The translations under genes and the position numbers were made by a program. Shown in pieces: positions 6,568-64,000 of a DNA stretch of 64,000 nucleotides; position 1 is the stretch's first letter, and each line of letters starts with the position of its first letter. The stretch covers positions 13,088 to 77,087 of the forward strand of contig JBQTHE010000035.1 of assembly GCA_052390115.1 (NCBI GenBank), given 5' to 3'. A model generated the notes under the pieces. That model was given only the letters and a program-made list of their open reading frames with translations. It was not told where the DNA came from and did not search any database. Origin of the DNA: Pseudonocardiales bacterium (lineage in GTDB: Bacteria > Actinomycetota > Actinomycetes > Mycobacteriales > Pseudonocardiaceae).

Positions 6568-6573
6568 TGAGGC

Positions 6574-7505: not shown

Positions 7506-7541
7506 CTGACCCTCGGTCCAGCGGCTGACTGCGCCAGACGT

Positions 7542-8873: not shown

Positions 8874-9049
8874 ACGGCGGCCGCTGGCGACGACCAAACC
8901 GTTCCAACCCCGGCGCCGAGATCCTCGACGACTCGTAGTCGCTGTCCACCGCGCCTTCGAGCAGCGAGCGGCGGTACCGGCCATGCGCCGGAGGGTACCT
9001 CAGCCAAGGTACCGAGGACCTCGGACAGCGGGCTGTGGAGAGTTGATCA

Positions 9050-26117: not shown

Positions 26118-26861
26118 GTGACTCCCAATACCACCGAGCCCGGCTCCGACCTCGTTGAGGCCGTCGAGCTGGCCCGGCGGGCGGCGCAGGTCGACGCCGG
26201 TGACAGTCCGGTGGGTCGGCAGGTGGGGACACAGATTGAGGACGGCGGCGCGGTCACACACCTGTTCGAGGCCGACCTGCCCGGCTACCGAGGCTGGCGC
26301 TGGGCGGTCACGGTGGCTTCGGCGGGTCCGGCCGCTCCGGTGACGATCAGCGAGGTGGTGCTGTTGCCCGGGCCGGACGCGCTGGTCGCGCCGGCCTGGG
26401 TGCCGTGGACCCAGCGGGTCCGGGCAGGTGACCTCGGGGTCGGGGACCTGCTGCCGACCGACCCGGACGATCCGCGGTTGGTGCCCGGCTATCTCAGCGA
26501 CGATGACCCGGCAGTGGAGCAGCTCAGCCCGGAGCTGGGCCTGGGACGACCCCGGGTGCTGGGGCGGGAGGCTCGCCTCGCGCTGCTGCAACGATGGCGC
26601 GACAGTGACCGCGGCCCGGATTCCGAGATGGCCCGCAGCGCCCCCGATCGATGCGTGACCTGCGGCTTCTACCTTCCGCTCGGCGGGGCGCTCGGCGCGG
26701 CCCTCGGTGTCTGCGGCAATGACATGGCTCCGGCCGACGGGCAGGTGGTGCACGCCGAGTTCGGCTGCGGGGCGCACTCCGAGGTGCAGGTGGATACCAG
26801 CCCGAGCGTGCCGGTGGCCGAGCTGGTCTACGACGACGCCGAGCTGGAGATACTGACCTGA
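26118..26861 (+). CDS. DUF3027 domain protein
   Basis: C-terminal Cys cluster CVTCGFYLPLGGALGAALGVCGNDMAPADGQVVHAEFGCGAHSE. GTG start at 26118. Confidence 0.7.
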   Translation: MTPNTTEPGSDLVEAVELARRAAQVDAGDSPVGRQVGTQIEDGGAVTHLFEADLPGYRGWRWAVTVASAGPAAPVTISEVVLLPGPDALVAPAWVPWTQRVRAGDLGVGDLLPTDPDDPRLVPGYLSDDDPAVEQLSPELGLGRPRVLGREARLALLQRWRDSDRGPDSEMARSAPDRCVTCGFYLPLGGALGAALGVCGNDMAPADGQVVHAEFGCGAHSEVQVDTSPSVPVAELVYDDAELEILT

Positions 26862-29710: not shown

Positions 29711-29976
29711 GTCGCACTGTGCTGCGATACTCAACCTAGGAACCATCTCTGCTACAACTTTTGAAGTGTTGCGGCAGCGCCGGCCTCATCGCTAACGTGA
29801 TACTCGGACTCGAACCATACGTCCTGCGCCGTGACTTTCCTATGCACACTGCCGTGCTTGGGCTCATGGCGACCGTGCACGGTGGCGTGATCGTCTCATT
29901 ACCAGCTGCCTGGCGGTGACCGGACTGACTGTTGGGCGGCCGAGTGAATGGTTCGTCCTGACGTAGGTAACTGGAG

Positions 29977-30993
29977 TTGACGGGGAAACCGGGCATGATA
30001 AACACAATGGCGTCACTGGATTTTGCGCTCGACGCGGCACGGACAAACACATACGCGGACAACCCGGGTGCCTTCTTGGCTATCAACGACGGAAACTCGT
30101 ACTTCACCGAGCCCGACCTACCTGGCGTCGTCGTCTACCGCACGGCGGGCAGCTTTCTGGTCCAGTTCGGTGGTCCGTTCGCATCAGTCGATTCCTACGT
30201 CGAGCTGTTGCGGGCGTTTCGCGGGTTCGCCCGTGGGCAGAACCGGAGGATTGTTGGCATCCAGCTACAACGTGTCGACGCGGAGATCTACGCACGTAAC
30301 GATTTCACGGTTAATCAGGTCGGTGCATCGTATGCGGTGGACCTGAACCGATTCTCGCTGCAGGGTACCCGGTTCATGCGGTTGCGCAACAAGATCGCGC
30401 GGGCGCACAAGGCCGGCCTTGTCGTGTGCGAGACCAGTCTCGACAAGTGGAATGACGCCATGCGCGCCCTGGACCAAGTGTGGCTGCGCAGCAAGGGCGA
30501 GCACGTCAAGCAGCTTGAGTTCCTGGTGGGCCAGTACGGCGATGAGATGCAGCAGCACCGGCGGCTGTTCGTCGGGATGATAGATGGCGACCTGGCCGGC
30601 TACATCTCGTACGCGCCGGTGTACGGCACCCGGCCCGGCTGGATGCACGATCTGAGCCGGCGCATCCCCGGCAAACTGCCGGGAATCATGGAGGCTATCA
30701 ACAAGGCGGCCATCGTGACTTTCGTCGGCGAGGGCGTCGACTGGCTGCACTTCGGTTTCACGCCGTTCACCGGCCTCGACGACGCTTTGGAAATACCTGG
30801 ACACAGCCGAGGATTCAACAAGCTTATGCACCTGCTGTGGCAGCACGGCGAGGCCGTCTACCCGGCCCGGACCCAGCTGGCCTACAAAGAGAAGTGGGCG
30901 CAGCACGTGGTACTTCCTGAGTACATCGCCTTCGACGGGCCCGCAGACATCGCAGGGTTCGTGCACGTTTTTCGGGCGGCAGGCGCTCTGTGA
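29977..30993 (+). CDS. Standalone DUF2156 / MprF C-terminal-type (LPG_synthase_C) aminoacyl-tRNA-dependent transferase; VlmA-like candidate
   Basis: No TM flippase domain. VVVYRTAGSFLVQFGGPFAS, FSLQGTRFMRLRNKIARAHKAGLVV, LDQVWLRSKGEHVKQLEFLVGQY, GYISYAPVYGTRPGWMHDLSRR, YPARTQLAYKEKWAQHVVLPEYIAF. Start could be 29977, 29995 or 30007. Confidence 0.7.
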   Translation: MTGKPGMINTMASLDFALDAARTNTYADNPGAFLAINDGNSYFTEPDLPGVVVYRTAGSFLVQFGGPFASVDSYVELLRAFRGFARGQNRRIVGIQLQRVDAEIYARNDFTVNQVGASYAVDLNRFSLQGTRFMRLRNKIARAHKAGLVVCETSLDKWNDAMRALDQVWLRSKGEHVKQLEFLVGQYGDEMQQHRRLFVGMIDGDLAGYISYAPVYGTRPGWMHDLSRRIPGKLPGIMEAINKAAIVTFVGEGVDWLHFGFTPFTGLDDALEIPGHSRGFNKLMHLLWQHGEAVYPARTQLAYKEKWAQHVVLPEYIAFDGPADIAGFVHVFRAAGAL

Positions 30994-31052: not shown

Positions 31053-31262
31053 ATGCCCATGGACGTCGAGCACGACACGACCGGCAGCGGCCGCGAGCAC
31101 GTCGACCAGCCGCGAGACCAGGCAGGGCACCACATGCTGGAGATGTTCGCGGCCGTCTGCGCCGCACCGGATGATCCGGGGGTGGCCGACCGCGCCAACG
31201 AGGCATTGCGTGCGCTGGAGGCCCCTCCACCAGCGACGTCTGCCCACGGATCCTTGACGTAA
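31053..31262 (+). CDS. Small acidic hypothetical protein (69 aa)
   Basis: RBS aaggaagg upstream of the ATG; GC3-biased; no motif recognised. Confidence 0.35.
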   Translation: MPMDVEHDTTGSGREHVDQPRDQAGHHMLEMFAAVCAAPDDPGVADRANEALRALEAPPPATSAHGSLT

Positions 31263-31357: not shown

Positions 31358-31812
31358 GACAGTTCGCGGGGCTGGTCGAGCTCGGCGAGGCCGTGGGTCA
31401 GAGCCTCGGTACCAGCGACTGGCACGGGATCACCCAGGAGATGGTGGACCGGTTCGCCGAGAACACCGGTGACCGTCAGTGGATTCACGTCGATCTGGAC
31501 CGTTGCGCGGCCGGGCCGTTCGGCGCTCCGGTGGCCCACGGGTACCTCACATTGGCAATGGTCCCTGGCCTGATGGCCGAGGTGTTCCGTGTCGACGGTG
31601 TTGGTCTGGTACTGAATAAGGAGTTGCGCAAACTACGATTTTTCTCCCCAGTGCGGGTGGGCGACCGGGTAAGAACCAGCGTGGACCTGATCTCGGCCCG
31701 GCCGCGCCCGCGCGACTACTGGGAAGCGAGCTTCCGAGTCACCGCGGAGATCGAAAATAATGAAGCCCCCGCATTCAGGGCCGAAACTGTGTTCCTCTAC
31801 CAGCAGAGCTAG
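31354..31812 (+). CDS. MaoC-like (R)-specific enoyl-CoA/ACP hydratase-dehydratase
   Basis: FAENTGDRQWIHVDLDRCAAGPFGAPVAHGYLTLAM (hot-dog hydratase motif). Confidence 0.8.
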   Translation: MRQFAGLVELGEAVGQSLGTSDWHGITQEMVDRFAENTGDRQWIHVDLDRCAAGPFGAPVAHGYLTLAMVPGLMAEVFRVDGVGLVLNKELRKLRFFSPVRVGDRVRTSVDLISARPRPRDYWEASFRVTAEIENNEAPAFRAETVFLYQQS

Positions 31813-31822
31813 TGAGTCGACG

Positions 31823-32692
31823 ATGAGCCCAGAACAGGTACCTGACTCGACCACTATCCGGCCGGGGGACGCCGACTCAACGACAGACCGAGGTAACCAG
31901 GAGAGAATCAGGTTCCTGTACCTCGGCGCGTTGGAGTGCTGGCTCGGTCGCCGGCCGGTGGAGATACGCGGCACCATCCAACGAACATTGCTGGCCGCGC
32001 TGCTTGCCGCCGGTTCCAAGCCGGTCTCGGTGGACGCGCTCGTTGAGGAGCTGTGGGGGGATAACCCACCGGCCAGGGCGGAGAATGCATTGCAGGCCCA
32101 CGTCAGCCGGTTGCGGAGAAAACTCCGCTGCGCCGGCGGCAATACCTCGGTCAGCTTGTCAAGCTTGCCATCAGGATACCGGCTGATGGTGTCCGAGGAG
32201 GACGTGGACGCGACCGCGTTCATGCGCGAACTCAACGACGGGCGTGGCCGGCCGAACACCGACGCCACCACGACCATCGCCAAGCTGCGTTCGGCGGTGG
32301 CGTTGTGGCGTGGTCCGGTGTTCGGCGGGCCACTTGGCGGTCCGATCTGCCAGGCCGCCGCCGCCAGGTACGAGGCCGCCCGGTCGGTCGCCGTTGAGCT
32401 GCTGTTCGACCTCGAGCTGGGGTGCGGCCGCCACACCGAGGTCATTCCGGAACTGAGTGAGTTGGTCGAGTCACCGTCGTTGAACGAACGGTTCTGCGAG
32501 CAGCTGATGGTCGCGCTGTACCGGTCCGGCCGGCAGACCGAGGCGCTGGAGGTGTACCGGCGGATGCGGATACGGCTCGACGCCGATCTCGGTGTCGAGC
32601 CCTCACCCACTCTGCGCAAGTACGAACGGGCGGTCCTGGTACATGATCCAGCGTTATGCACCGGCGCCAACTATGCCGTGTTGCGCGACTGA
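31823..32692 (+). CDS. SARP-family pathway regulator (OmpR-type winged helix plus BTAD)
   Basis: IRFLYLGALECWLGRRPVEIRGTIQRTLLAALLAAG, ALQAHVSRLRRKL, GYRLMV, LRSAVALWRGPVFGG, EQLMVALYRSGRQTEALEVYRRMRIRLDADLGVEPSPTL. Contains a TTA codon at 32654-32656. Confidence 0.85.
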   Translation: MSPEQVPDSTTIRPGDADSTTDRGNQERIRFLYLGALECWLGRRPVEIRGTIQRTLLAALLAAGSKPVSVDALVEELWGDNPPARAENALQAHVSRLRRKLRCAGGNTSVSLSSLPSGYRLMVSEEDVDATAFMRELNDGRGRPNTDATTTIAKLRSAVALWRGPVFGGPLGGPICQAAAARYEAARSVAVELLFDLELGCGRHTEVIPELSELVESPSLNERFCEQLMVALYRSGRQTEALEVYRRMRIRLDADLGVEPSPTLRKYERAVLVHDPALCTGANYAVLRD

Positions 32693-42278: not shown

Positions 42279-42653
42279 CTCATATACGGTCTTTCGACGA
42301 GCGAACCGGACCAGTCTTCAGTGGCATCTGCCGCATTCGTCGATCCCAACAGTGCTCGCTGACACGCCGCTGACCGGGCGCTGATTGCCTGGCCGGGGAA
42401 CACGGTCGCCGTTGCGACGGACAGTGTCGGCAGCAGGCCGAGCCAACGCTCTGACGTCTGTTGGACCGCCAAGCAGGGCGCGTTGGACGCGCTGGCGGCC
42501 CCCACTCCTTCAGGGATGACCGGCGACGAGTAAAGTTTTACCACAAAGGTAATCGACGCCAGTCCGCCGCTGGGTCATACTCGAACATGCGGACGATGCA
42601 GTAATTCGGAAACCATTCTGGATATGTCCCATGAGTGTTACGGGGAGAGAGGC

Positions 42654-53202: not shown

Positions 53203-54323
53203 TTTCTCCTAGGTGGTGGCGACGGGGAATCGGTCGGCTCCGCCTCGTCGCATGAGCTGGCCAGCTGGTCGCCGGTCGCGGCGAACGCAGTGATGTCGGG
53301 CCAGCGCAGGGTGGCCGCGCCCCAGGTGAGGCCACCGCCGAAGCCGGCGACCAGAACTCGGTGACCGGCTCGCAGCTCGCCGGCCACCGCGGCCTGGGCC
53401 AGCAGCAGTGGGATGGACGCCGCGGCGGTGTTGCCGACCCGGTCGATGTTGCTGACCTGCCGGTCCCTGGTGATACCCAGCCCTGACGCGACCGAGGCGC
53501 AGATCCGAATGTTGGCCTGGTGCGGGACGAACCTGTCGACGTCTTCGACACGCCAGCCGGCTCGGCGCAGCGCGCGCAGCGAACAGTCGGTGATCCGCTC
53601 GACCGCATTCCGGTAGACTTCGCCGCCGCGCATCTGGAAGTAGCGGTCGGCCTCGGCCATCTGCTCGCCGGAGGAACGCTGCCGCGCTCCCCCGGACGGG
53701 ATGCAGATCAGCTCGCTACCGCCACCGTCGCTGCCCAGCACGCACGGCCCGACCACGCCCGGCTCGCCGGCCGTGCCGGCCCGCAGCACCACCGCTCCGG
53801 CGCCGTCGGCGAAGATCACCGCGGTGTTCCGGTCGTTCGGGTTGATGATCGTGGAAAACGCCTCGGCACCAATCAGCAGCACCCGGTCGGCGGTGCCGCT
53901 GGCGATCACACCGACCGCGCTGGCCAGCCCGTAGAGGAATCCGCTGCACACCGCGGACACGTCCCAGGCCGCCACCCCGGTCAGCCCGAGCCGGGCGGCC
54001 ACCGCGGGCGCGGTCGCCGGGCACAGGCAGTCGGGCGTGGTGGTGGCCAGCACCACCGCGTCCACGTCGACTCCACCGGCGGACTTAAGCGCCAGCGCGC
54101 CGGCCTCTGTGGCCAGGTCGCCGGTGGCCATGCCCCGGTCGACCACGTGCCGGGCCCGGATGCCGGTCCGGCTGGTGATCCACTCGTCCGAGGTGTTCAG
54201 GTGGGTGGCCAGGTCGTCGTTGGTCACCACCCGAGGTGGGAGCCAGGCGCCCGCACCGCAGATCACCGCGTGCCGGTCCGCGGCGGGACCCCGACGGGCG
54301 GTTGACGTTGCCACGGTGGTCAT
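53199..54323 (-). CDS. Beta-ketoacyl-ACP synthase III (FabH-like) with ~30-aa C-terminal extension
   Basis: AVCSGFLYG (Cys), VPHQANIRI (His), VGNTAAASIP (Asn). ATGA overlap with the di-iron gene. Confidence 0.85.
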   Translation of the reverse strand: MTTVATSTARRGPAADRHAVICGAGAWLPPRVVTNDDLATHLNTSDEWITSRTGIRARHVVDRGMATGDLATEAGALALKSAGGVDVDAVVLATTTPDCLCPATAPAVAARLGLTGVAAWDVSAVCSGFLYGLASAVGVIASGTADRVLLIGAEAFSTIINPNDRNTAVIFADGAGAVVLRAGTAGEPGVVGPCVLGSDGGGSELICIPSGGARQRSSGEQMAEADRYFQMRGGEVYRNAVERITDCSLRALRRAGWRVEDVDRFVPHQANIRICASVASGLGITRDRQVSNIDRVGNTAAASIPLLLAQAAVAGELRAGHRVLVAGFGGGLTWGAATLRWPDITAFAATGDQLASSCDEAEPTDSPSPPPRRN

Positions 54324-55300
54324 GGAGCGGACCGTGCACTCGAGAGCACGCCGTCCAGACCCATATAGGTCATCCGGACCTCGGCCATCTGGTCTGTCCA
54401 CCGCTGAGCCATGTCGTAGCGCTCCTCGGGCGTGGTATCCAGCATCCGCTGGCCCGGCCAGATCTCGTAGTCGCCGATCAGTCCCGCATGCTGTGCCATG
54501 CCCTGCTGGAATAGTTCCTCGCGGGTCATCACGTACTTGCGGTCCGGCACCGCGTCCCACAGCCGCTCACCCTCGGCGAGTATCTCCAGCAGCCGGGGCC
54601 GGTACTCTGGGTGCGCGCTCAGGTGGTCTCGGATGATCGAGCTGCCGACGGTGAGGTGGCGGATCTCGTCGATGGCCGCGCCGCGAGCGATCTCGCTGGC
54701 CGCCGGGTCGAGACGATCCCATTTGCGTTCGCTGAGCTCGGCCGCCGGCGCGAGCACACCCTCGATCACGATGGTGAAGATGGCGACTCCGCCGACGAAG
54801 TCGCCCTCGTCGCGCATCACTCGCAGGGCGAACTCCTCCACTGGGTCGAGCACCTCCGCGGTGTAGTCCGCGGACATCTCGGCGATGGTGGGCAGCAGCT
54901 TGTTCGCCGGCACACCTATGTCGACCAGATGGTTGCGGAACACCATGGCGTGCCGGGCCTCGTCGACCAGCTGCGTGGTGTAGAACTCGATCTCCGGAAT
55001 ACCCGGCGCTGAAGCGACGTAGTGGGCCAGAATGCGGGTCGCCTTCTCCTCGGCTACCGAGCGGTATCCAAGCTCAAGCAACAGAGCTTCGCGCAGCGGG
55101 CCCGGTTCGCGCATGTGGTCTGGGGTGATCACGCCGACCGCATACCCTTTCGCCGCCCTGCCGCGCAGGGTGCCCTGGGCGACCGAGCTGAGCCAGTACG
55201 CAAGATCGCACTGCTTCGCGGTCAGGACGAGGTTCATCGCGCCGTCCAGCAGCCCGGGAGCGGTGTCCCAGCCTGCCTCGCGCGGGATGGCGTCGGTCAT
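54320..55300 (-). CDS. Ferritin-like di-iron carboxylate oxygenase (candidate N-oxygenase / azoxy-forming enzyme)
   Basis: Two E...ExxH units: EIEFYTTQLVDEARHAMVF and IEGVLAP...AIDEIRHLTVG. RBS gaggaagg. ATGA overlap with the flavin reductase stop. Confidence 0.7.
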   Translation of the reverse strand: MTDAIPREAGWDTAPGLLDGAMNLVLTAKQCDLAYWLSSVAQGTLRGRAAKGYAVGVITPDHMREPGPLREALLLELGYRSVAEEKATRILAHYVASAPGIPEIEFYTTQLVDEARHAMVFRNHLVDIGVPANKLLPTIAEMSADYTAEVLDPVEEFALRVMRDEGDFVGGVAIFTIVIEGVLAPAAELSERKWDRLDPAASEIARGAAIDEIRHLTVGSSIIRDHLSAHPEYRPRLLEILAEGERLWDAVPDRKYVMTREELFQQGMAQHAGLIGDYEIWPGQRMLDTTPEERYDMAQRWTDQMAEVRMTYMGLDGVLSSARSAP

Positions 55301-55887
55301 CGCGTAAGCCTTCCTCTCGGTGTCAGCTGGATTCCGAGGTGCGGACCGAGGCAGCCGAGGTGGTTGGTCGGGCGGAAATCGTCGGAAAGGGCGCACAGCG
55401 ACCCGCCGTGCAGGGTGCTGGCGAAACTGAGCAGTGGGGAACCGACGCCGGTTTCGCCCGACGCCACGACGGCGAGCAGGAGGCAGTGGTCGCCGGCCGG
55501 CAGCCAGCGGCTGAGCCGGCACGTCAGGTAGGACAGCGAGCCGTTGATCAACGGGGCATCGCTGGTCGAGTCGGTCCGGCAGCGGATGCCGTCGAACTGC
55601 GCGCTGCCGCGGGGCCGGTCGGGGTGGGCAAACCATCGGGCCAGGGCAGCCTGCTCGGTGTTCAGCACGTTCACCGAGAACCATTGCCGGTCGCGAACGC
55701 GCCGGAGAAACGACGAGCTTCGGGCCAGGCTCACTCCGATGAGCAACGGTTCCCTGGACACCGCGGCCAGCGCGCTGACCGTCGTGCCGTGTGCGCCGCG
55801 CTCGTCGGCGAGGGTGAGCACCGAAACCCCGGAGGTGAACCGGCGGACCGCTCTATGGTGGTTTTTGGTCACTACCTCGGTGATCAT
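55297..55887 (-). CDS. NAD(P)H:flavin reductase (HpaC/VlmR-type)
   Basis: RAVRRFTSGVSVLTLADERGAHGTTVSALAAVSREPLLIGVSL...FSVNVL. Confidence 0.8.
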   Translation of the reverse strand: MITEVVTKNHHRAVRRFTSGVSVLTLADERGAHGTTVSALAAVSREPLLIGVSLARSSSFLRRVRDRQWFSVNVLNTEQAALARWFAHPDRPRGSAQFDGIRCRTDSTSDAPLINGSLSYLTCRLSRWLPAGDHCLLLAVVASGETGVGSPLLSFASTLHGGSLCALSDDFRPTNHLGCLGPHLGIQLTPRGRLTR

Positions 55888-55901
55888 CAGTGGTCTCCGG
55901 T

Positions 55902-56414
55902 TCAGCCGGCCGCGGTCTGCCGGGCGGTACGGGAGGCCTCCGGTGTGTCCTGGGCGGTCGGCTCGACGTCGCTGCGGGATTCCAAGGCGGCACGCAGCTT
56001 CAGGTACGCCGGGTGCGGCTGGGGTTCGAAGGACAGGTTGAACGGCTTGAGGAAGTTGCCGAACAGTCCCCGGTCACCGAACAGGTGGATGGGGATGGCC
56101 AGTAGGGCCCACTCCCACCCGACGAACAGCACCCACAGCGCTATCACCGCGCTCTGGGTGATCAGGCTGTGCATGGTGTTGTAGAGCACGTAGTAGATCT
56201 TGGGGATCCGTTTGGTGCTGCTGCGGTGCCAGGCGATGGCGCCAGGGAGGTAACCGATGAGATCGATGTAGACGAACAGGACCACCGCCGGCAGCCAGCG
56301 GACCTGGTCGATGTGCACGACGAACAGGGCGACTGCGACGGCGAACAACACCAGGTACTCGGCGCGGTGCAGGCGGTAGGTCGTGCGACTCTCAAAGGGA
56401 TTGGCCTGGTCCAT
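55902..56414 (-). CDS. Small integral membrane protein (DUF4260-like, ~4 TM); candidate VlmO-type N-N-forming component
   Basis: RLHRAEYLVLFAVAVALFVVH, LPAVVLFVYIDLIGYLPGAI, YYVLYNTMHSLITQSAVIALWVLF, ALLAIPIHLFGDRG. Assignment to a VlmO-like role is by context only. Confidence 0.55.
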   Translation of the reverse strand: MDQANPFESRTTYRLHRAEYLVLFAVAVALFVVHIDQVRWLPAVVLFVYIDLIGYLPGAIAWHRSSTKRIPKIYYVLYNTMHSLITQSAVIALWVLFVGWEWALLAIPIHLFGDRGLFGNFLKPFNLSFEPQPHPAYLKLRAALESRSDVEPTAQDTPEASRTARQTAAG

Positions 56415-56420
56415 GATCAG

Positions 56421-56921
56421 TCACCTCTCAGCGGGCGCGCCGGCGACCGGGGCCGGCACGAGTTCCAGTTCGCCGTCCAGGTGCACGTCGTCGAACATGC
56501 CGACCACGACCCAGGCGACGGTCTCCTTGATGACGCGTTCGGCGATCGGGTCGAGAATGCCCTCCAAACTCGGGATGCCGAAGTCGAAGTCGACCTCGAA
56601 GTGCAACTCGGTGTCCTCGCCGGAGTGGCGCAGTGTCCAATGTCCGGTGAACTCGTCGAAATCCCCGTTCTGCTGTTCGAACTTGATCACCAGATCGTCC
56701 CGCAGGAACTGCTCCTGTTCGGTCCAACGCAGTAGTCCGCTGCGGAAGCGCAGCACCCAACTCGACCGGCCGGTCGGCGCGGGCCGTGTCTGGTGCACGA
56801 CCGCGGACTGCACGTGCGGGGCCAGTTCCGGGTACCGTTCGAACTTGACCACCGAGTCATAGACCGTCTCCGGGGACACGCCCCTGATCAGCGCGTTCAG
56901 CTGGACATGCCGCATGGTCAT
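56421..56921 (-). CDS. SRPBCC (START/cyclase-dehydrase fold) protein
   Basis: VSPETVYDSVVKFERYPELAPHV...WVLRFRSGLLRWTEQEQF...FEQQNGDFDEFTGHWTL. ATGA overlap with the aminotransferase stop. Confidence 0.7.
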   Translation of the reverse strand: MTMRHVQLNALIRGVSPETVYDSVVKFERYPELAPHVQSAVVHQTRPAPTGRSSWVLRFRSGLLRWTEQEQFLRDDLVIKFEQQNGDFDEFTGHWTLRHSGEDTELHFEVDFDFGIPSLEGILDPIAERVIKETVAWVVVGMFDDVHLDGELELVPAPVAGAPAER

Positions 56922-58204
56922 TTACCGCCTTCCGGCATGCGAGCACGCCGGGAGATCAGATCTCTGGTCGCGCGGTCGAATGATCGGATCAGGAACTCCA
57001 CGTCGGAGTCGGTGAGAATGGCCGGTGGGGTGAATCGGACCGTCGCGATGCCGTTCATCGAATGGTTGGCTATCACGCCGTGGTTGAACAGCTCGATCAA
57101 CATCTCGCCGGCAAGGCCGGCCTCGACGAATTCGACACCGATCAGCAGGCCTTTGCCGCGGACGTCGACCACCAGGTCGCCGCAGTTCTCGCGCGCGATG
57201 CGCTCGATCTCCGGCAGCAGTAGGGCGCCGAGTTCGGCGGCCTTGGTGATCAATCGGTCCTCCTTGATAGCCTGGATCGCGCCCCGCACGGCGGCCATCA
57301 GCACCGGCGCCCCGGAGAAGGTGGCGGTGTGCACGTACGGGTCCTTGTCGAACGGCGAGAAGATCTGCCGGTTGGCCACCGCGGCGGACACCGGCAGCAC
57401 GCCGCCGCCCAGTGCCTTGCCGGTCAGCAGCACGTCCGGCACCACACCTTCGAGGTCGACACCCCACCATTCGCCGAGTCGGCCCATGCCGCTCTGCACC
57501 TCGTCGATGATCAGGAAACCGTCGTGCTTACGGCACAAGTCCGCGACGCTGGTCAGGTAGCCGGGCGGCGGGATGATCACGCCACCCTCGCCCTGCACCG
57601 GTTCGACGATCACGCCGACCTCACCTGGATGCGCCGCCAGTTCGCGTTCCAGCGCCTCGTTGTGGCCGAACGGCACGTGCGTCACGTCGGGCAGCAGCGG
57701 CTGGAACGGCTTCTGGTAGACGTCCTTGGCTGTCACGGACAGAGCACCGAGCGTCTTTCCGTGATAGCCGTGGTGCATCGAGACCAGCCGCCGCTTGCCG
57801 TGCGCCCTGGCCAGCTTCAGGCCGGTCTCCACAGCTTCGGCGCCGGAGAGCGCGAAGTGCACCCGGTCCATGCCGGGTGGGGTGACCGAGGCCAGCGCCT
57901 CGGCCGCCCTGGCCACCGTCGGTTCGAGCAGGATCCTGGTGGAGATCGGGTGGGCGTGCAGTTGGCTGAGCACGGCGTCCATCACGATCGGATGCCGTGC
58001 GCCCATGATGAACACGCCGTACCCGCCGCAGTTGAGGAACTCCCCGGCATCGCTAGTGCGCAGCCACGCGCCGGCGGAGGCGACCTCCATGTGGCTGCCG
58101 AAAAGTTCGGCGAGCGTGGCCCGCCCCTTGCTCAGATGCGCCCGGTACAGGTCGAGGATCTCCGCCCCGGAGTCGACCGGCGCGGCTGTGTCGATCACGG
58201 TCAC
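56918..58204 (-). CDS. Class III PLP-dependent (omega-)aminotransferase
   Basis: GGYGVFIMGARHP, HGYHGKTLGALS, IIDEVQSGMGRLG, LLTGKALGGG (PLP Lys). Confidence 0.85.
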   Translation of the reverse strand: MTVIDTAAPVDSGAEILDLYRAHLSKGRATLAELFGSHMEVASAGAWLRTSDAGEFLNCGGYGVFIMGARHPIVMDAVLSQLHAHPISTRILLEPTVARAAEALASVTPPGMDRVHFALSGAEAVETGLKLARAHGKRRLVSMHHGYHGKTLGALSVTAKDVYQKPFQPLLPDVTHVPFGHNEALERELAAHPGEVGVIVEPVQGEGGVIIPPPGYLTSVADLCRKHDGFLIIDEVQSGMGRLGEWWGVDLEGVVPDVLLTGKALGGGVLPVSAAVANRQIFSPFDKDPYVHTATFSGAPVLMAAVRGAIQAIKEDRLITKAAELGALLLPEIERIARENCGDLVVDVRGKGLLIGVEFVEAGLAGEMLIELFNHGVIANHSMNGIATVRFTPPAILTDSDVEFLIRSFDRATRDLISRRARMPEGGK

Positions 58205-58249
58205 CGTGTGCTCCCTTGGTCAGTCGCCGGACTCAGGAAAGTCCCGGAA

Positions 58250-59386
58250 TCAGGAAAGTCGCAGTGGCCCGCCGGCGAAGTAATCCAGAAGCGGTTCGGC
58301 CGCGCTGCTCCGCGACGGCGGGTGGAAGGCCAATGCACGCACCGCGCAGGACAGGTAGGCGATATCGGAGGACCGGATGAAGGCGATGCCGCCGAGCAGC
58401 TCCACGGCCAGATCGGTGGTGGCCGCCAAGGCTGCCTGCACGGCGTAGCGGGCCACCAGCACGGCGGCGACCGCGTCGTCGCCGGACAGCCCGTCGTCGA
58501 CGGCGCGGGCCACTCCCTCCAACTGGCCGACGGCGGACTCGAGGCCCACCGCGACCGCGGCCCGGTCGGTCACGCTTCCCCTGCCACCATCCAGCACTTG
58601 GGCGGCAAGCGCGCTGGCCGCGCCGACGTAGACCGACGAGATCAGCATGACGAACCACACGAAGCCCGCGGTCTGCAGGTCGTCCAGGCGGTGCGGATCG
58701 TCGGGCCTGGTACGGATGACCAACTCGTCGGGCACTCGGACGTCGGTCAGCCGGACCTCGTCGCTCTGCGCGGCGGCCAGCACCCAGCTGGACCAGAAGG
58801 GATGCACCGAGATCCCCGGCGAGTGCGCCGGAACTAGCGCGACCGCCAGGGAATCCGTACCTTCCGTGGACAGCGCGACGCTCGCGGTCAGCAAGTCCAT
58901 CGACCCGGACAGGCTGCAGGGCTTCTTGCTGCCACTGAGCATCCAGTTGTCGCCGTCGGGTCGGGCGGACACGCTGGGCAGCAGGATGTTCTGGTTCGGC
59001 TTGCCCTCCGCCCAGCCCGAGGCCATCAGCAGGCCGTCCGGTACCACCCTGGACAGCAGGTCGATCTGCAGGCCGGTGAGCCGGTCGGCGGTGCGGGCAA
59101 GGGAGAACAGCATCGCCGCGGTGAAGTGGTGCATGGTGACGGCGGCACCGAGCGACGGCGAGCACGAGGACAGGCCGCGCATCACGCGGATCGCTTCCAA
59201 CGCGCCGGCGCCCGCTCCGGAGTACTCCGGCGGCACCAGCAGACCGACGCCGCCGAACTTGCGAAACAGCCCGATCACCGGGCTGCCGACGGCCTCGCGT
59301 TCCAGCAACGGAATCTCGTCGAGGGCCGCGCACAGCCCGGGGTGGTGCTTCTCGCAGACCTGCCGTGCCGCGTCCAGCGAGCGCAT
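58250..59386 (-). CDS. Acyl-CoA-dehydrogenase-fold flavoprotein; candidate two-component amine N-hydroxylase (VlmH-like)
   Basis: RBS aaggag before ATG 59386. ACAD-like architecture (FGGVGLLVPPEYSGAGAG..., WMLSGSKKPCSLS, C-terminal helical bundle). A flavin reductase is encoded in the same operon. Confidence 0.65.
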   Translation of the reverse strand: MRSLDAARQVCEKHHPGLCAALDEIPLLEREAVGSPVIGLFRKFGGVGLLVPPEYSGAGAGALEAIRVMRGLSSCSPSLGAAVTMHHFTAAMLFSLARTADRLTGLQIDLLSRVVPDGLLMASGWAEGKPNQNILLPSVSARPDGDNWMLSGSKKPCSLSGSMDLLTASVALSTEGTDSLAVALVPAHSPGISVHPFWSSWVLAAAQSDEVRLTDVRVPDELVIRTRPDDPHRLDDLQTAGFVWFVMLISSVYVGAASALAAQVLDGGRGSVTDRAAVAVGLESAVGQLEGVARAVDDGLSGDDAVAAVLVARYAVQAALAATTDLAVELLGGIAFIRSSDIAYLSCAVRALAFHPPSRSSAAEPLLDYFAGGPLRLS

Positions 59387-59457
59387 GTGGATCTCCTTGG
59401 GTCGGGGCGGGAAAGGTCGGGGTAGGGCAACGTCGTGGTCCGGCGATGGCCGCACCT

Positions 59458-61113
59458 TCAGCAGCCGAACATGGCGTCACGCGGGCGTATACCGGTGGCG
59501 ATGCTGACCCCCTGCAGATGGGAGGTCTTGAGGATCGGGTAGTTGGCCTCGCCGAACACACCGCCGGTCAATCCCGTGCCACCGTGGGTGGGCAGGATCG
59601 GCAGGAAGCCGATGTGCGAGTCATTGATCTTGAGCAGGCCGGCGTTGCGGACGTCGCGCACGAAGCGGTCGATGACCTCGGTCGAGGCCGACCACAGCGA
59701 GTTGCGCAGCCCGTACTCGTTGGCGTTGACGAACCCGATGACCAGATCGAGCAACACCTCGTCGGGTGCGTGTTCGGGCACCACCACCGGCAGCATCGGG
59801 TAGAAAGTCTCGTGCCTGACCACCGCCAGTTCCCGCGCGCCGGACATCCCGTCGACCCGCAGCACGGTCGGTTCCAGGAACACCCCGGTCTCCGACGGCG
59901 TGCCGTCCAGCTCCACCCGCCGGCCGCCGGTGATTACCCGCGCGCCCTGCTCGAGCGCCTGGCGCAATTGGGCGAAGAACTTCTCGCTGCGGCGGACCGG
60001 GGACAGCAGCACGTCCTCGTCGTCGGGATAACCGGGCCGGATCCGGGCGGCCTGCTCCCGGAGCCTGGCTAGCAGCTCGTCAGCGATGTCGGGGTGGGCC
60101 ACCACGTACTTGGGCACCATGCAGATCTGGCCGGACCCGAAGAAGCACTCGGTGATGGCTTCGGCCGCCATGTCCAGGTCGCCGTCGTGCCACACGACGA
60201 GGCCGTCGTTGCCGGCGAGTTCAAGGATCGGCTTCTTGCCCCTGGCCACGCACTCGGTTTGCAGCCGCAGACCCTCTTCGCTGCCGCCGATGTAGAAGAT
60301 GTCGTTGACGAGCGGGTGTTGCAGCCATCGATCGAGGATCTGGCGCGGCGGCCCGCAGACAACGTTCAGCGTGCCGGCAGGCGCGTCCAGATCCTCCAGC
60401 AGCGGCACCACCAGATCCCGGAGCACGTACATGCTGCTCAGCGCGATGCTGCGGGGCGCCCGCACCACCACGGCGTTGCCAGCCATCAGCGCCAGCACGG
60501 CCAGCGCTGCGCTGGGCGCCGGCGCGTTCTGCGGCGGATTCAAGCACACCACACCGTCGGGCTGGTACCGCACGATCAGCCGACGCGAGCCGTACGCGAA
60601 CTCGGTGTACATCTGCTGCGCGTACCAGGAGCAGCTCTCCTGGCTGAACACCTGCATCAGACAGGTGAACTCCCATTCGGCCAGCTTGCGGGGGTGCGCC
60701 TCGGCCACGAGCATGCCCAGGAACTCCTCACGGTGGCGCACGAGCTTGTGCCGGAACAGTTCGCCGAGGCGCAGCCGCTCGGCCAGCGGTACGCCAGCCC
60801 ACACCGGTGCGGCGGCCGCCGCGGCCTCGATGGAGGCGTCCACCTGCTCCGCGCTGGCTACCGCGCAGCGGCCGACCACGTAGGGGTGGCCGCCGGCGTC
60901 GGAGTGCGGGTCCTGCTCGAGTGCCCGCTTGAGGCGCACGCTAGTGAACACGTCCTCCAGCAGGGAGCGGGCGGTCACCGTGTACACCCAGGCGATTCCC
61001 TCCACGTCCCTGCCGGCGATATAGGAATGGTAACTTCGCAATCCGACAGTATTAATCGCCTCGGCGTCCTCCAGATCCACACTGAGGATTTGGACGTTAT
61101 AGTCGGCAACCAC
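59458..61113 (-). CDS. Aldehyde dehydrogenase-superfamily enzyme (possible acyl-thioester reductase / aldehyde-forming)
   Basis: ILELAGNDGLVV (catalytic Glu region) and FFGSGQICMVPKYVV (catalytic Cys). 551 aa with N- and C-terminal extensions. Confidence 0.75.
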   Translation of the reverse strand: MVADYNVQILSVDLEDAEAINTVGLRSYHSYIAGRDVEGIAWVYTVTARSLLEDVFTSVRLKRALEQDPHSDAGGHPYVVGRCAVASAEQVDASIEAAAAAAPVWAGVPLAERLRLGELFRHKLVRHREEFLGMLVAEAHPRKLAEWEFTCLMQVFSQESCSWYAQQMYTEFAYGSRRLIVRYQPDGVVCLNPPQNAPAPSAALAVLALMAGNAVVVRAPRSIALSSMYVLRDLVVPLLEDLDAPAGTLNVVCGPPRQILDRWLQHPLVNDIFYIGGSEEGLRLQTECVARGKKPILELAGNDGLVVWHDGDLDMAAEAITECFFGSGQICMVPKYVVAHPDIADELLARLREQAARIRPGYPDDEDVLLSPVRRSEKFFAQLRQALEQGARVITGGRRVELDGTPSETGVFLEPTVLRVDGMSGARELAVVRHETFYPMLPVVVPEHAPDEVLLDLVIGFVNANEYGLRNSLWSASTEVIDRFVRDVRNAGLLKINDSHIGFLPILPTHGGTGLTGGVFGEANYPILKTSHLQGVSIATGIRPRDAMFGC

Positions 61114-61226
61114 TCGCGCATTCTCCTAGCAGCTAACACGCCCGCTCACCCGAGCGACAGTCTGAATTCTTTCAGTCGCACCTGACCATCGGCTGACATA
61201 CTTCTGACCGAGACGGCCGGGGCGGA

Positions 61227-62732
61227 TCAGCCGGCGAGCGCCAGGGTTAGTAGTCGGGACAGCTCTTCGGCCGAACAGGTGGAAAGCGAAGCGAATGTGT
61301 CCGCCACCTCGACCGGCCCACCGTGAGTGAGGAACTTGGTGCGCATCAGTTCGGCGTGCGCGGCGCGGGTGTGGGGGCCGGCGGCACCGATCGGGATGTC
61401 CCGCTGCCTGGTGAACGACCGGCCGTCTGCGAGGTGCACGGTGACTCGGGCCGGGGTGCTCTTGGTCGCGGTCTGGTAGGTCTCAGCAGCCGGGCCGATC
61501 TCGCCGGCCAGCGTCGCTAACTCGGCGCCGCCGAACTTCGCCAGCCAGCAGACAGCGCGTTTCCCGGCCTGGCGGACCGCCTCGCCGAAGGGCGCGACGG
61601 ACTCGAGTAGGCACCTGGTCATCTCCGGGTCGTGCACCAACTGGACCGCTTCGGCCAGCGCCCACCTGCGTGGATCGCTGATCGCGGGCTCAGCGAAGTC
61701 GGCGACGGTCAGGTCACCGGTCAGCAGCGTGGTGGCCACCGCATAGGGGGTGGCCAGCAGCAGCGAGCTGATGGGGGTATCCGCACCGTTGAGGTAGTCT
61801 TCGGCCTTCCGGCCGACGAAGAGGGTATACAGCGAAACGTCGACCACGATCCGTGTCACGTGACGTTGCGGGGATGCGTTGACCGCGACGAGATCGCGGT
61901 GCAGTTCGATGGCGCAGTCCACCGCCGCATCGATACCCGGCCCACCCGGACGGACCTTGAACGACAGCGTGTCGGTATGCCACCGGTGCCCCAGCCCGTC
62001 GGTCACCGCCTCGGGCAACGGCACCGAGGCGAACCGAGCGAGGAAACCGTCCGGATGCTCAAGGATGTCCGGCAAGCCCACCATCTCGGCCGCTGCCGCA
62101 TCGCACGCGTCCATGGCCGTACGCACCGGCGTGAACGCGTGCAACGCCTTGGCATCGCTGCCAAGGAAGCCGTGCATCGACGGCCACATCGGCGTGGTGA
62201 ACGACAGGCCAAGCGCGTCCACCCACCGCCGGGCTGGCGCAGACTCGCTGCGCAGACGGCCGGCCACAGCGCCGGCCAGGTGCGTGTGCAGGGCGCTCTG
62301 TCCTCGGAACGGTCCGAGCGTAGCCGCCGCGGTGATACGGGCGGCGCACTCGTTCGCGGCGATCACCGCGGTGAGCAGCGCGGGGCCGTCCATCCCCAGA
62401 GCGTAGGTGTAGGCAGTCGGGACGGACACGGTCGAACCGCCGAGGTGGCCGGCGTAGGCGGTGTCGTCCAGGTTCAGCCAGGAACCCAGGCCGGCCAGCA
62501 CGCACGCCGACTGGCGTGGATCGGCCTGCAGCGGGGGCCCGAAGGCCCGGACCAGCTTGCGGCCCAACGGATGGATCAGCCCAGCCCGGATGGCGGCGAG
62601 TTGCGAGAGCACCTGACTGCCGGCCAGCGCGACCACTCTCGGCGGTACGTCCGCCAACCGTAGGGTGCTGGCCCACTCGGAGAGTTCCCCTGTCAGCGTC
62701 GCGTGCGCGGTCCGGGTTCCCATGGTGGTCAT
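61227..62732 (-). CDS. MmgE/PrpD-family protein (VlmK-like candidate lyase/dehydratase)
   Basis: The ATG shares ATGA with the kinase stop. LSEWASTLRLADVPPRVVALAGSQVLSQLAAIRAG is a typical PrpD-family N-terminus; 501 aa. Confidence 0.75.
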   Translation of the reverse strand: MTTMGTRTAHATLTGELSEWASTLRLADVPPRVVALAGSQVLSQLAAIRAGLIHPLGRKLVRAFGPPLQADPRQSACVLAGLGSWLNLDDTAYAGHLGGSTVSVPTAYTYALGMDGPALLTAVIAANECAARITAAATLGPFRGQSALHTHLAGAVAGRLRSESAPARRWVDALGLSFTTPMWPSMHGFLGSDAKALHAFTPVRTAMDACDAAAAEMVGLPDILEHPDGFLARFASVPLPEAVTDGLGHRWHTDTLSFKVRPGGPGIDAAVDCAIELHRDLVAVNASPQRHVTRIVVDVSLYTLFVGRKAEDYLNGADTPISSLLLATPYAVATTLLTGDLTVADFAEPAISDPRRWALAEAVQLVHDPEMTRCLLESVAPFGEAVRQAGKRAVCWLAKFGGAELATLAGEIGPAAETYQTATKSTPARVTVHLADGRSFTRQRDIPIGAAGPHTRAAHAELMRTKFLTHGGPVEVADTFASLSTCSAEELSRLLTLALAG

Positions 62733-63715
62733 CGACGAGAACCGTCCAGGGTGGCCATGCCGCTTCGGCACAGTGCGGGAAGGACCCTCGGCAGCACCTG
62801 CAGGGTGAACCGGGTCGCCGTGCCCGTGCGCAGCTCACCGTCGTGCTCGAAGCTCAGCGGCTCGCCGTCGGTCCGTTCGACGGTGACGCGCCGGCCCCGC
62901 GCATACACCACACCCGGCTCGCGCAGGTGTGCACCATTGCGTGTCAGATCGGGTACGTCCACGGGATCGATCTCGCTACCGATCACGCACACATCCAGCA
63001 AACCGTCGTCGAGCACCGAACGGGGCAACACCTGGTAGCTACCGCCACGATGGCGGCCCCCGCCTACGTTGGCCAGCACGGTCTTGCCTGCGTGAACCAC
63101 GGCACCGTCGACGAGGACGCGACCGGGATACGGCACGTACTCAGCCGCGGTCCTGGCCAGCGCGATCCGGTAACGTTCCCGGCCCACGATCGGGACGGAC
63201 CTGACTGTGATCAGAGCGTCGGCGATCAGGCCCGAGCACGCACCGAGCAAGACCAGGGCGTCGAGTTCGACCAGCCGGGCGATGTCGAGCAGGCAACGCC
63301 GGGAACCGTTGCCGCTCAACGCGGCGGGCACCGCCTCCGGCCACGGCAAGTCGCCCCACTGCGCGAGGTAGCTGGAGTTGCCGGTACCGGCCGGGATGAT
63401 CAGCAACGCAGGAAACACGTCCCCGGTGCCCGCCGACAGCAGACCTTGTACCACCTCGCGGACCGTGCCGTCGCCGCCAACCGCGATCACCACGTCGGGT
63501 CGGCGGCTGACCGCCTCGGTGGCCGCCTCGGTGGCCGCCTCGGTGGCCGCCAGGGTGGCGTCACCGCGCTCGGTAGTCCAGCGGACCGACAGCCGGTGGA
63601 CGTGCGGCCGACACAGCTCGACCAGTTCTGCGACTAGATCTGGGCTCACTGTGCCCGCAGCCGGATTCGCTATGACCAGAGCGGCGGAGAACGGCCGACC
63701 GTTCACGTCAACCAT
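62729..63715 (-). CDS. Diacylglycerol-kinase catalytic-domain (LCB5/YegS-type) kinase (VlmJ-like candidate)
   Basis: ALVIANPAAG ... VVIAVGGDGTVREVVQGL (GGDGT motif). RBS gggag upstream of ATG 63715. Confidence 0.8.
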   Translation of the reverse strand: MVDVNGRPFSAALVIANPAAGTVSPDLVAELVELCRPHVHRLSVRWTTERGDATLAATEAATEAATEAVSRRPDVVIAVGGDGTVREVVQGLLSAGTGDVFPALLIIPAGTGNSSYLAQWGDLPWPEAVPAALSGNGSRRCLLDIARLVELDALVLLGACSGLIADALITVRSVPIVGRERYRIALARTAAEYVPYPGRVLVDGAVVHAGKTVLANVGGGRHRGGSYQVLPRSVLDDGLLDVCVIGSEIDPVDVPDLTRNGAHLREPGVVYARGRRVTVERTDGEPLSFEHDGELRTGTATRFTLQVLPRVLPALCRSGMATLDGSRR

Positions 63716-63776
63716 GACTCAGAACTCCCTCGCGGCCATCGTGTGCGGGTGGGATGCACACCGAACGGGCTAGCTG

Positions 63777-63863
63777 CGGAGAGGGCAGGATTCGAACCTG
63801 CGCAGGCACCAGCCTTCCGGACGCACGCGCCCAGACCCGATAGGCCACTACGGGTACCTCTCC
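63777..63863 (-). tRNA. Class II (Ser-type) tRNA-like gene with non-canonical 8-nt anticodon loop; anticodon undeterminable (specialised tRNA or pseudo-tRNA)
   Basis: Hand fold of the minus strand: GGAGAGG-TA-CCCG-TAGTGGCCTAT-CGGG-T-CTGGG-CGCGTGCG-TCCGG-AAGGCTGGTGCCTGC-GCAGG-TTCGAAT-CCTGC-CCTCTCC-G. The acceptor stem (7 bp), D arm, long variable arm (AGGC/GCCT), T arm and G73 are all good. The anticodon stem has two G-U pairs; the loop has 8 nt, no U33 and no Ser anticodon. CCA is not encoded. Confidence 0.6.
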
Positions 63864-64000
63864 ATGACCGACCTCGCCGGGGACCGTTCGTCCTCGTCGC
63901 GGTCTGCAGCCAGCATGGAGCGTTGTGTTGACGGCTCGCTGACCGCCACCTGACACGATTCGTCCACCAGCCCATACCGGTCGTTGTGACGGATACGGCA

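Follow-up and report, generated by a model that had tools for sequence, protein, structure and literature searches.

In the valanimycin pathway, the transferase VlmA uses seryl-tRNA to attach serine to an alkyl-hydroxylamine, and the vlm gene cluster possesses its own seryl-tRNA synthetase (SerRS), VlmL (PMC9379638, PMC12945691, PMC11705231). VlmA has been grouped in a review with the FemABX-like GNAT-fold transferases (PMC12945691), and a further cluster with a make-up like that of the one studied here, that for KA57-A, has been described as an 'azoxyalkene and type I PKS' (polyketide synthase, PKS) cluster (PMC6662830). We analyzed a stretch of 64,000 nucleotides from a Pseudonocardiales bacterium (contig JBQTHE010000035.1, positions 13,088 to 77,087; referred to in the following as the window) that carries azoxy biosynthetic genes and, directly upstream of a VlmJ-like kinase gene, a small tRNA(Ser)-like gene. 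The RNA specified by this gene is tRNA-shaped, is rejected by standard detectors, and departs from a standard tRNA in its anticodon loop. Judged from sequence comparisons, it probably serves as a cluster-regulated, dedicated, non-decoding seryl carrier for VlmA. The gene and its parts are positioned in the window as follows.

63777 to 63863, minus strand: tRNA(Ser)-like non-decoding RNA gene, 87 nt (sequence, cloverleaf minimum-free-energy fold, family covariation)
63863 to 63857, minus strand: acceptor stem, 5' strand
63854 to 63836, minus strand: D arm
63834 to 63817, minus strand: 'anticodon' hairpin
63816 to 63802, minus strand: variable arm, 15 nt
63801 to 63785, minus strand: T arm
63784 to 63778, minus strand: acceptor stem, 3' strand
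63777, minus strand: G73

Read 5' to 3', the window RNA is GGAGAGG-TA-CCCG-TAGTGGCCTAT-CGGG-T-CTGGGCGCGTGCGTCCGG-AAGGCTGGTGCCTGC-GCAGG-TTCGAAT-CCTGC-CCTCTCC-G. Its acceptor stem, GGAGAGG/CCTCTCC, contains the Ser-type pairs G1-C72, G2-C71 and A3-U70 and is followed by G73; the D arm is CCCG-TAGTGGCCTAT-CGGG, and the T arm, GCAGG-TTCGAAT-CCTGC, is perfectly paired. C74 is encoded at position 63776, the complete CCA end is not. The minimum-free-energy (MFE) fold is a cloverleaf with a long variable arm (-45.5 kcal/mol; z = -3.3 relative to shuffled sequences) in which the nucleotides making tertiary contacts are kept (U8, A14, G15/C48, G18G19, T54-T55-C56). All features expected of a class II tRNA are present: a 7-bp acceptor stem, a 5-bp T stem, a T-loop of the form TTCRANY, G18G19, and the long variable arm. 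Every detail of the 87-nt class II cloverleaf that a preliminary description of this DNA had folded by hand can be found on the minus strand between 63863 and 63777, and its account of the anticodon arm as carrying an 8-nt loop with neither U33 nor a Ser anticodon is borne out by both the sequence and the fold. When the arm, CTGGG-CGCGTGCG-TCCGG, is taken as a 5-bp stem, the 8-nt loop CGCGUGCG remains; in the MFE fold, the arm closes into a 7-8 bp stem that is capped by a CGUG tetraloop. Hence, the window copy lacks everything that a decoding loop should possess: seven nucleotides, U33, a Ser anticodon, and a purine at position 37. Neither a detector nor a covariance model finds the standard 7-nt loop with a Ser anticodon that, according to the same description, would have proven its fold wrong.

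ARAGORN reported no tRNA gene in the 64-kb window, and Rfam at its gathering score gave no match in the window or in six loci carrying related RNAs; neither ARAGORN nor the curated Rfam models thus recognize the RNA as a tRNA-Ser. When Rfam was run in E-value mode, the top match of the RNA was tRNA-Sec (RF01852), with 30.4 bits (E = 3e-4) where the gathering score is 47. Membership in this class is contradicted by the low score, by the 7/5 geometry of the acceptor and T stems (8/5 in bacterial tRNA-Sec), and by the lack of a UCA loop. The allo-tRNAs are set apart in the same way, as all members of the RNA family described below have 7/5 geometry instead of 8/4 or 9/3. Two other sub-threshold matches obtained in E-value mode in the window, Plastid-psbl-rps4 and SorX, are chance matches. 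An open reading frame (ORF) of 90 amino acids that overlaps the RNA (63703 to 63975, minus strand) was dismissed; it is not called in the public assembly and failed a GC3-based ORF screen.

SerRS does not read the anticodon of its tRNA; recognition rests on the acceptor stem, on G73 and on the long variable arm. Its identity set, which we take from the E. coli literature to consist of G73, G1-C72, G2-C71, A3-U70, C11-G24 and a variable arm of at least 3-4 bp, is complete in the window copy, and family members with variant acceptor stems keep these elements as well. The 3' 25-mer of the RNA is identical to that of real tRNA-Ser genes (CGA, GCU, GGA and UGA isoacceptors), including an identical T stem. 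As the T stem is that of a genuine tRNA-Ser, evasion of EF-Tu is not the distinguishing trait of this RNA.

The RNA is not a peculiarity of this genome. A tRNA-like gene of class II length stands just upstream of the kinase gene in a metagenome-assembled genome of the Pseudonocardiaceae (L002) and in two Streptomyces loci (L005 and L012), and a third Streptomyces locus (L011) has it 4.3 kb upstream of the kinase gene. Its immediate neighbor in L002 and L005 is the VlmA gene, oriented divergently. We built a covariance model from five sequences, the window copy and loci reached through kinase homologs; this model scores the window copy, itself part of the seed, at 99.9 bits, and it matches at least 107 sequences, 86 of which are distinct. 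A match in L006 (18.9 bits), which falls inside a coding sequence and has many mismatches, is noise. In the alignment of the 107 members (86 distinct rows), 98.3% of the cells are paired, and 12 pairs have changed on both sides. The covariation score of 0.242 compares with 0.106 in shuffled alignments and with at most 0.044 for slid partners, and none of 500 shuffles reached the observed values. Covarying positions comprise all five pairs of the anticodon stem, all four of the variable stem, and two of the D stem. The acceptor and T arms are invariant in this alignment, an invariance that is partly built into the metagenome set because those loci were retrieved by the exact 3' 25-mer of the RNA; in members free of this constraint (L011, L213 and L220), acceptor pairs 4-7 and one T-stem pair change in a compensatory manner, while G1-C72, G2-C71, A3-U70 and G73 are kept. 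C74 is encoded in all 107 members and the full CCA in seven of them. The recurrence of this RNA, with covarying stems, in more than 100 loci is far beyond chance.

These data bear on the alternative, raised in the preliminary description, of a decayed tRNA left behind by integration of the island. The failure of general tRNA detectors and of Rfam on the RNA and its position at the border of the azoxy operon would suit a tRNA-Ser pseudogene in decay, or what remains of an integration site at the island edge. Yet a decaying gene is at odds with more than 100 relatives whose acceptor, D and T arms hardly vary while their other stems change in a compensatory manner, with a consistent place in the clusters, and with tandem copies and a conserved promoter. 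Moreover, the RNA is the only part that aligns by BLAST between the window and L002, its closest relative (87% identity), while the flanking sequences do not align. We regard a pseudogene or integration scar as scarcely conceivable.

The anticodon arm varies between 14 and 22 nt across the family and has its canonical length of 17 nt in only 11 of 82 members. Its MFE loop comprises 4 nt in 50/82, 3 nt in 13/82 and 7 nt in 4/82 members, and many of these loops are UUCG/UNCG or GNRA tetraloops. The anticodons nominally assigned by ARAGORN scatter widely (2-nt, 4-nt, Arg, Gln, Val, Met, Leu, Phe and others), and none is conserved. Consequently, the crippled loop noted earlier for the window copy is real in so far as no usable anticodon loop exists, but it does not represent damage to this particular copy; the broken loop is the norm of the family. 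These observations also speak to the possibility that the RNA is a decoding tRNA with an unusual loop that might, in analogy to bldA, control cluster genes as a quadruplet/frameshift or missense suppressor. In some members the loop does comprise 7 nt and a U33-like base, and ARAGORN gives these members triplet anticodons; but the MFE loops range from 3 to 7 nt and seldom reach 7, nominal anticodons differ between close relatives and even between tandem copies, and the window copy, with its 8-nt loop devoid of U33, folds to a tetraloop. We therefore consider a role in decoding to be highly improbable.

Which genes accompany the RNA? It recurs in gene clusters of many soil actinomycetes, and most copies are embedded in aliphatic azoxy clusters of the VlmA/DUF2156 type, often in tandem and often in the vicinity of a SerRS paralog. 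All 14 Streptomyces plasmid records (PLSDB) with a VlmA homolog of at least 50% identity carry it, and a valanimycin-like plasmid cluster (L210) has a tandem pair of the tRNA-like genes. Three of eight chromosomal VlmA loci possess it, those of Micromonospora siamensis (three tandem copies), Actinoplanes teichomyceticus (two) and Microbispora (two), and in each of these the copies are located between VlmA and the neighboring operon; the family is also found in Pseudonocardiaceae. Whether homologous azoxy clusters carry the same RNA, a question posed by the preliminary description, can thus be answered in the affirmative for many clusters. A metagenome scan that used the exact 3' 25-mer of the RNA as the query retrieved at least 120 loci. 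Among the loci listed, ARAGORN called 74 genes of the tRNA-like type (58 unique sequences) and about 24 genuine tRNA-Ser genes with normal loops, and most of the loci missed by ARAGORN also contain family members according to the covariance model. Azoxy genes reside on the same, often short, contig in 46 of 66 tRNA-like metagenome loci among those listed, with VlmA mostly 100-300 bp away from the tRNA-like gene and divergent from it. They were found in only 1 of the 34 remaining listed loci that had been binned as canonical, and this one (L169) is a mis-binned family member; no true tRNA-Ser locus with the same 3' 25-mer, among the loci listed, has azoxy genes nearby. A search with the VlmA protein itself returned only relatives of at least 61% identity, none of them from a known azodyrecin producer. 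Kinase-only Streptomyces loci (L004, L008-L010 and L013), which have VlmJ/K and no other azoxy genes, contain no tRNA-like gene.

Copy number and surroundings of the RNA vary. Tandem arrays of two or three copies occur, and one plasmid has four. SerRS paralogs are present in many related clusters, and several loci share the gene order SerRS, desaturase, tRNA-like gene. Three copies on plasmid NZ_CP109120 are identical and lie within a repeat that takes in about 115 bp upstream of the RNA, the RNA itself, and a GC-rich hairpin with a T-rich stretch behind it. These promoter/tRNA-like gene/terminator cassettes are found at 20130-20216, 26190-26276 and 36185-36271 of L084 (NZ_CP109120.1, 60000-109000), where they are interspersed with genes for an alaS paralog, a condensation-domain protein, a peptidyl carrier protein, a phosphopantetheinyl transferase, a LOG-family protein and a phosphoribosyltransferase. 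The fourth copy, along with a serS paralog, belongs to the azoxy operon that this plasmid carries about 30-47 kb away. RNAs with a GUCAGC-type loop form a large subgroup of the family that adjoins VlmA in metagenome loci (L174, 6871-6959; L099, 2036-2127) whose clusters have a different make-up: a pyridoxal-phosphate-dependent decarboxylase, a prenyltransferase-like protein, an FkbM methyltransferase and a ketosynthase, with no VlmH, VlmB, VlmJ or VlmK seen on 12-15 kb of contig. The pair of VlmA and tRNA-like gene may be a module that is used beyond the known azoxy pathways.

It is against this background that a serine-charged RNA serving a partner other than VlmA, either a different enzyme of the cluster or the cluster SerRS paralog in a sensing or insulating capacity during production, has to be weighed. 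SerRS paralogs adjoin the RNA in several loci, and the extra copies on NZ_CP109120 lie about 30-47 kb from VlmA, near the alaS paralog and genes resembling those of a nonribosomal peptide synthetase (NRPS). Nonetheless, VlmA is the only aminoacyl-tRNA-using enzyme known from these clusters (PMC9379638, PMC11705231), and VlmA and the tRNA-like gene stay together even where the rest of the cluster differs (L174 and L099). We deem such a partner quite unlikely.

The RNA also has a promoter motif in common with other parts of the cluster. Short triple direct repeats with an 11-bp period precede it and two operons in the window.

63928 to 63954, minus strand: SARP-box-like triple direct repeat GTCAG-N6-GTCAG-N6-GTCAA, 11-bp period, upstream of the tRNA-like gene (exact motif search)
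63912 to 63917, minus strand: -10-like hexamer CATGCT, 10 nt past the last repeat of this box (sequence)
61182 to 61208, minus strand: second triple box GTCAG-N6-GTCAG-N6-GTCAG, followed after 10 nt by AAGAAT, before the operon for an aldehyde dehydrogenase (ALDH), VlmH, aminotransferase, VlmO, VlmR and VlmB
42359 to 42385, minus strand: third triple box ATCAG-N6-GTCAG-N6-GTCAG, followed after 10 nt by TGGGAT, upstream of the type I PKS operon
63741 to 63761, minus strand: small spacer hairpin GTGTGC-ATCCCACCC-GCACAC (sequence)
63730 to 63725, minus strand: AGGGAG in the spacer (sequence)

The three matches of the triple-repeat motif in the window compare with 0.00 expected, and each is followed at the same spacing by a -10-like hexamer. 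In a relaxed form (RTCAR, three times), the motif is found ahead of 55 of 76 first or solo family copies, mostly 80-100 nt before the mature 5' end; the control strand has it in 5 of 76. A hexamer of the CAnnnT type is found at the same spacing across the family, and also in the repeated cassettes of NZ_CP109120, which have three GTCAG-type repeats with the 11-bp period. A generic scan for sigma-70 promoters and terminators around the tRNA-like gene found nothing. Direct repeats that overlap the -35 region are typical of SARP activators, and SARP genes are present in nearly all related clusters. In the window, a SARP-family gene adjoins the VlmA-like gene (31691 to 32692, plus strand); its product is a candidate activator at the three boxes. 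Their placement before the RNA, the ALDH operon and the PKS operon suggests one SARP regulon across the whole 30-64 kb region. Transcription would start about 40 nt upstream of the mature 5' end, and RNase P would remove the leader. Judged from these sequence features, the RNA should behave as an expressed, co-regulated gene.

The spacer between the RNA and the ATG of the kinase gene at 63715 is 61 nt long, and it holds the hairpin (63761 to 63741) and the ribosome-binding site (AGGGAG, 63730 to 63725) reported in the preliminary description. The hairpin is unconvincing as a terminator because it lacks a U tract, and as no terminator-like site lies in the spacer, transcription may plausibly continue into vlmJ/K. 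The earlier proposal that the RNA and the kinase operon are co-transcribed can accordingly be refined: since the RNA has its own SARP-type promoter, such co-transcription would be read-through from that promoter.

This arrangement is compatible with a structured, uncharged RNA that acts, for instance, as a processing or stability module at the 5' end of cluster operons, with RNase P setting the 5' end of the mRNA, or as a decoy titrating a tRNA-binding protein such as SerRS, EF-Tu or a regulator. The RNA is often the first element after a SARP-type promoter and stands before differing operons (kinase, ALDH, PKS), and the window has no terminator between it and the kinase gene. However, many copies stand alone with their own terminator hairpin, or in tandem; a processing signal would need neither strict SerRS identity positions nor G73, C74 and a long variable arm; and the strongest linkage of the RNA is to the gene for an aminoacyl-tRNA-dependent transferase and to no particular downstream operon. 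An uncharged element of this type is in our view unlikely.

We favor the seryl-carrier function because the tRNA L-shape and SerRS identity are kept while the decoding loop is lost, and because of the linkage to VlmA, the tandem copies, the SerRS paralogs and the common promoter motif. The data lend themselves to the following model, in which expression, processing, serylation and use by VlmA are all deduced from sequence. The RNA would be transcribed from its own SARP-type promoter along with the cluster, in the window with probable read-through into the VlmJ and VlmK genes. It would then be matured like a tRNA: RNase P would generate the 5' end, and the 3' end would be trimmed and given its CCA. 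SerRS would charge it with serine; this might be the cluster-encoded paralog in many relatives and the housekeeping enzyme in the window genome. Finally, the VlmA-like DUF2156 enzyme would pass the seryl group to the alkyl-hydroxylamine, a step leading to the N-N bond. As its anticodon arm is a plain hairpin, the RNA should be incapable of pairing with a codon; the seryl pool that it carries would consequently not be drained by ribosomes, and misinsertion of serine would be impossible. Since SerRS ignores the anticodon, a drifting duplicate of a tRNA-Ser with a working loop would misinsert serine, and selection toward closed loops might ensue. On a broader scale, we think it reasonably probable that actinomycete azoxy and related VlmA-type clusters encode a widespread, unrecognized family of anticodon-less tRNA(Ser) that provides a SARP-activated, ribosome-blind seryl pool, sometimes with a cluster SerRS, to feed the transferase. 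The observation made in the preliminary description stands, and its main interpretation is supported by the comparative evidence.

Several points weigh against this proposal. Ordinary tRNA(Ser) reportedly sufficed in published in-vitro work. The RNA is absent within 10 kb on either side in five of eight chromosomal VlmA loci (Jatrophihabitans, Actinokineospora, Frankia, S. polygonati and a Streptosporangiaceae metagenome-assembled genome), where SARP-type repeats are present, and the 20 kb on each side of distant VlmA homologs (Paraburkholderia phymatum, Embleya) are devoid of a tRNA-like gene. Given that some VlmA clusters lack it, the RNA is accessory, and in view of the reported sufficiency of ordinary tRNA(Ser), it would be only an enhancer or insulator and not a requirement. 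Its D stem (C10-G25 ... G13-C22; CCCG/CGGG) is unlike that of canonical tRNA-Ser, so that recognition by SerRS is not guaranteed, and the invariance of the acceptor and T arms has, as mentioned, a partly technical origin. Within the window, VlmA is 33 kb away from the RNA, while the two genes are adjacent and divergent in most relatives, and tBLASTN with an E. coli SerRS query found no SerRS there, in agreement with the preliminary description. Lastly, three members (L104, L202 and L087) occur in contexts without recognizable azoxy genes on the available DNA.

The surroundings of these three members can be described as follows: that in L104 (4444-4539) lies near genes for Fur and a catalase-peroxidase, that in L202 (5521-5603) near a sirohaem synthase gene, and that in L087 (20001-20095) in a plasmid region with transposases and dnaE.

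The azoxy genes of the window are arranged as follows.

62729 to 63715, minus strand: VlmJ-like diacylglycerol-kinase-family kinase, first protein gene downstream of the RNA (Pfam DAGK_cat, YegS_C)
61227 to 62771, minus strand: VlmK-like MmgE/PrpD-family protein (Pfam, synteny)
54320 to 61113, minus strand: azoxy core operon (Pfam; gene calls of L001; homologs 'VlmB-like' in RefSeq plasmids), with the seven genes that follow
59458 to 61113, minus strand: aldehyde dehydrogenase
58250 to 59455, minus strand: VlmH-like acyl-CoA-dehydrogenase-fold N-hydroxylase
56918 to 58204, minus strand: class III aminotransferase
56421 to 56921, minus strand: SRPBCC protein
55902 to 56414, minus strand: VlmO-like protein, weak DUF4260 match
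55297 to 55887, minus strand: flavin reductase
54320 to 55300, minus strand: VlmB-like diiron protein
29971 to 30993, plus strand: VlmA-like aminoacyl-tRNA-dependent transferase (DUF2156 / LPG_synthase_C; Pfam PF09924, 6.6e-53)
31691 to 32692, plus strand: SARP-family regulator adjoining the VlmA-like gene (Trans_reg_C + BTAD; Pfam)

Homologs of the VlmJ-like kinase occur in azoxy clusters. Past the VlmB-like gene lie fatty-acid-synthase-type genes and a desaturase gene, and farther along the window are genes for a type I PKS, an acyl-CoA ligase, a luciferase-like monooxygenase, a thioesterase and a P450. The VlmA-like protein is 79% identical to the VlmA of L002, whose gene is located directly beside the tRNA-like gene of that locus.

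The public contig L001 (GCA_973402845.1, CCXEVC010000135.1) matches the window, the single difference seen being a 12-nt repeat. This in-frame tandem repeat, GGCGGCCACCGA, in the kinase gene (63519 to 63554, minus strand) is present in three copies in the window and two in L001, which leads to a 4-residue length difference in the VlmJ-like kinase. Beyond the end of the window, L001 encodes at 5840-9474 two LuxR-family regulators (one AAA_16 + GerE, one response regulator + GerE) that are divergent from the RNA/kinase operon. They occupy the place that VlmA takes in relatives, suggesting that a rearrangement in the window genome relocated VlmA to its site 33 kb from the RNA.

A small ORF of about 50-70 amino acids directly follows the DUF2156/VlmA gene in most of the VlmA loci whose gene tables we inspected (window, 31053-31262, plus strand; L220, 11017-11175; L217, 11039-11200). 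It belongs to no Pfam family, and the three translated products have a common core resembling F.AVCA.PD(D/N)P.V...A; the small protein could be a partner of VlmA.

The locus-tag numbering in RefSeq has gaps exactly at the positions of the tRNA-like genes, which suggests that PGAP calls many of them as RNA genes; they would thus have been seen but not interpreted. Annotation pipelines for tRNAs either miss these genes or give them arbitrary isotypes.

If the RNA is indeed charged and used by VlmA, it would be, to our knowledge, the first tRNA of a natural-product cluster dedicated to a biosynthetic transferase, and we know of no earlier case in which exclusion from translation is achieved through an abolished anticodon loop. 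It would explain how producers use seryl-tRNA without starving or corrupting translation, with the aminoacyl supply of secondary metabolism uncoupled from protein synthesis. The RNA would then also provide a new marker for mining azoxy and N-N clusters and a natural ribosome-orthogonal tRNA scaffold, and it could be a part hitherto missing from heterologous hosts and in vitro systems, where its addition may improve titres.

How does this RNA compare with known systems? With canonical class II tRNA-Ser it shares the 7/5 acceptor/T geometry, G73, the long variable arm and the identical 3' 25-mer; in contrast to it, the RNA lacks the 7-nt loop, U33 and a Ser anticodon, and it has a 4-bp CCCG/CGGG D stem in place of the usual stem starting with G10. 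The allo-tRNAs and tRNA-Sec-like species (PMC5389517) are likewise of the SerRS type, with long variable arms and unconstrained anticodons, and the best Rfam match of the RNA is tRNA-Sec. Unlike the 7/5 azoxy RNA with its non-decoding hairpin, the allo-tRNAs of 8/4 or 9/3 geometry have decoding 7-nt loops. The tRNA-Other of Bacillus cereus and the Streptomyces bldA tRNA have main roles outside bulk translation or tied to secondary metabolism; in contrast to the azoxy RNA, they possess a working anticodon loop, pair with a codon or a T-box, and have no known link to a tRNA-dependent transferase.

The valanimycin pathway, with the SerRS paralog VlmL and with VlmA as a seryl-tRNA:isobutylhydroxylamine seryl transferase, has the same enzyme family and chemistry, and VlmA-, VlmH-, VlmR-, VlmO-, VlmB-, VlmJ- and VlmK-like genes are all present in the window. 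It differs from the window, which has no SerRS paralog, and the only donor named in the published descriptions covered here is cellular tRNA(Ser) or seryl-tRNA. The KA57-A-type cluster of Streptomyces rochei, compared here by its description, resembles the 30-64 kb region of the window in having an azoxy operon, a type I PKS, a fatty-acyl-CoA ligase and a luciferase-like monooxygenase. No cluster-encoded tRNA is mentioned in the full-text, non-subscription literature that we covered on azoxy and valanimycin biosynthesis, VlmA/VlmL, allo-tRNAs and aminoacyl-tRNA-dependent natural-product enzymes, a 2026 review included.

A close parallel is provided by the non-proteinogenic tRNA(Gly) species of Staphylococcus, extra tRNA genes with synthetase identity that are kept from translation and supply the aminoacyl-tRNA-dependent FemXAB peptidoglycan transferases. 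Those tRNAs have a normal Gly anticodon loop and escape translation via changes in the T stem that weaken EF-Tu binding, whereas the azoxy RNA has the T stem of a genuine tRNA-Ser and a destroyed anticodon loop, and is encoded in a secondary-metabolite cluster with a promoter motif for the pathway regulator. Several of the traits that define such translation-excluded transferase tRNAs recur in our RNA: it is an extra tRNA gene that retains synthetase identity elements, its anticodon loop is abolished, and it adjoins VlmA divergently in most loci, although the window gene lies 33 kb from VlmA. The concept of a translation-excluded transferase tRNA is known from the Fem tRNA-Gly; a Ser-type version that is anticodon-ablated, cluster-encoded and pathway-regulated would be new.

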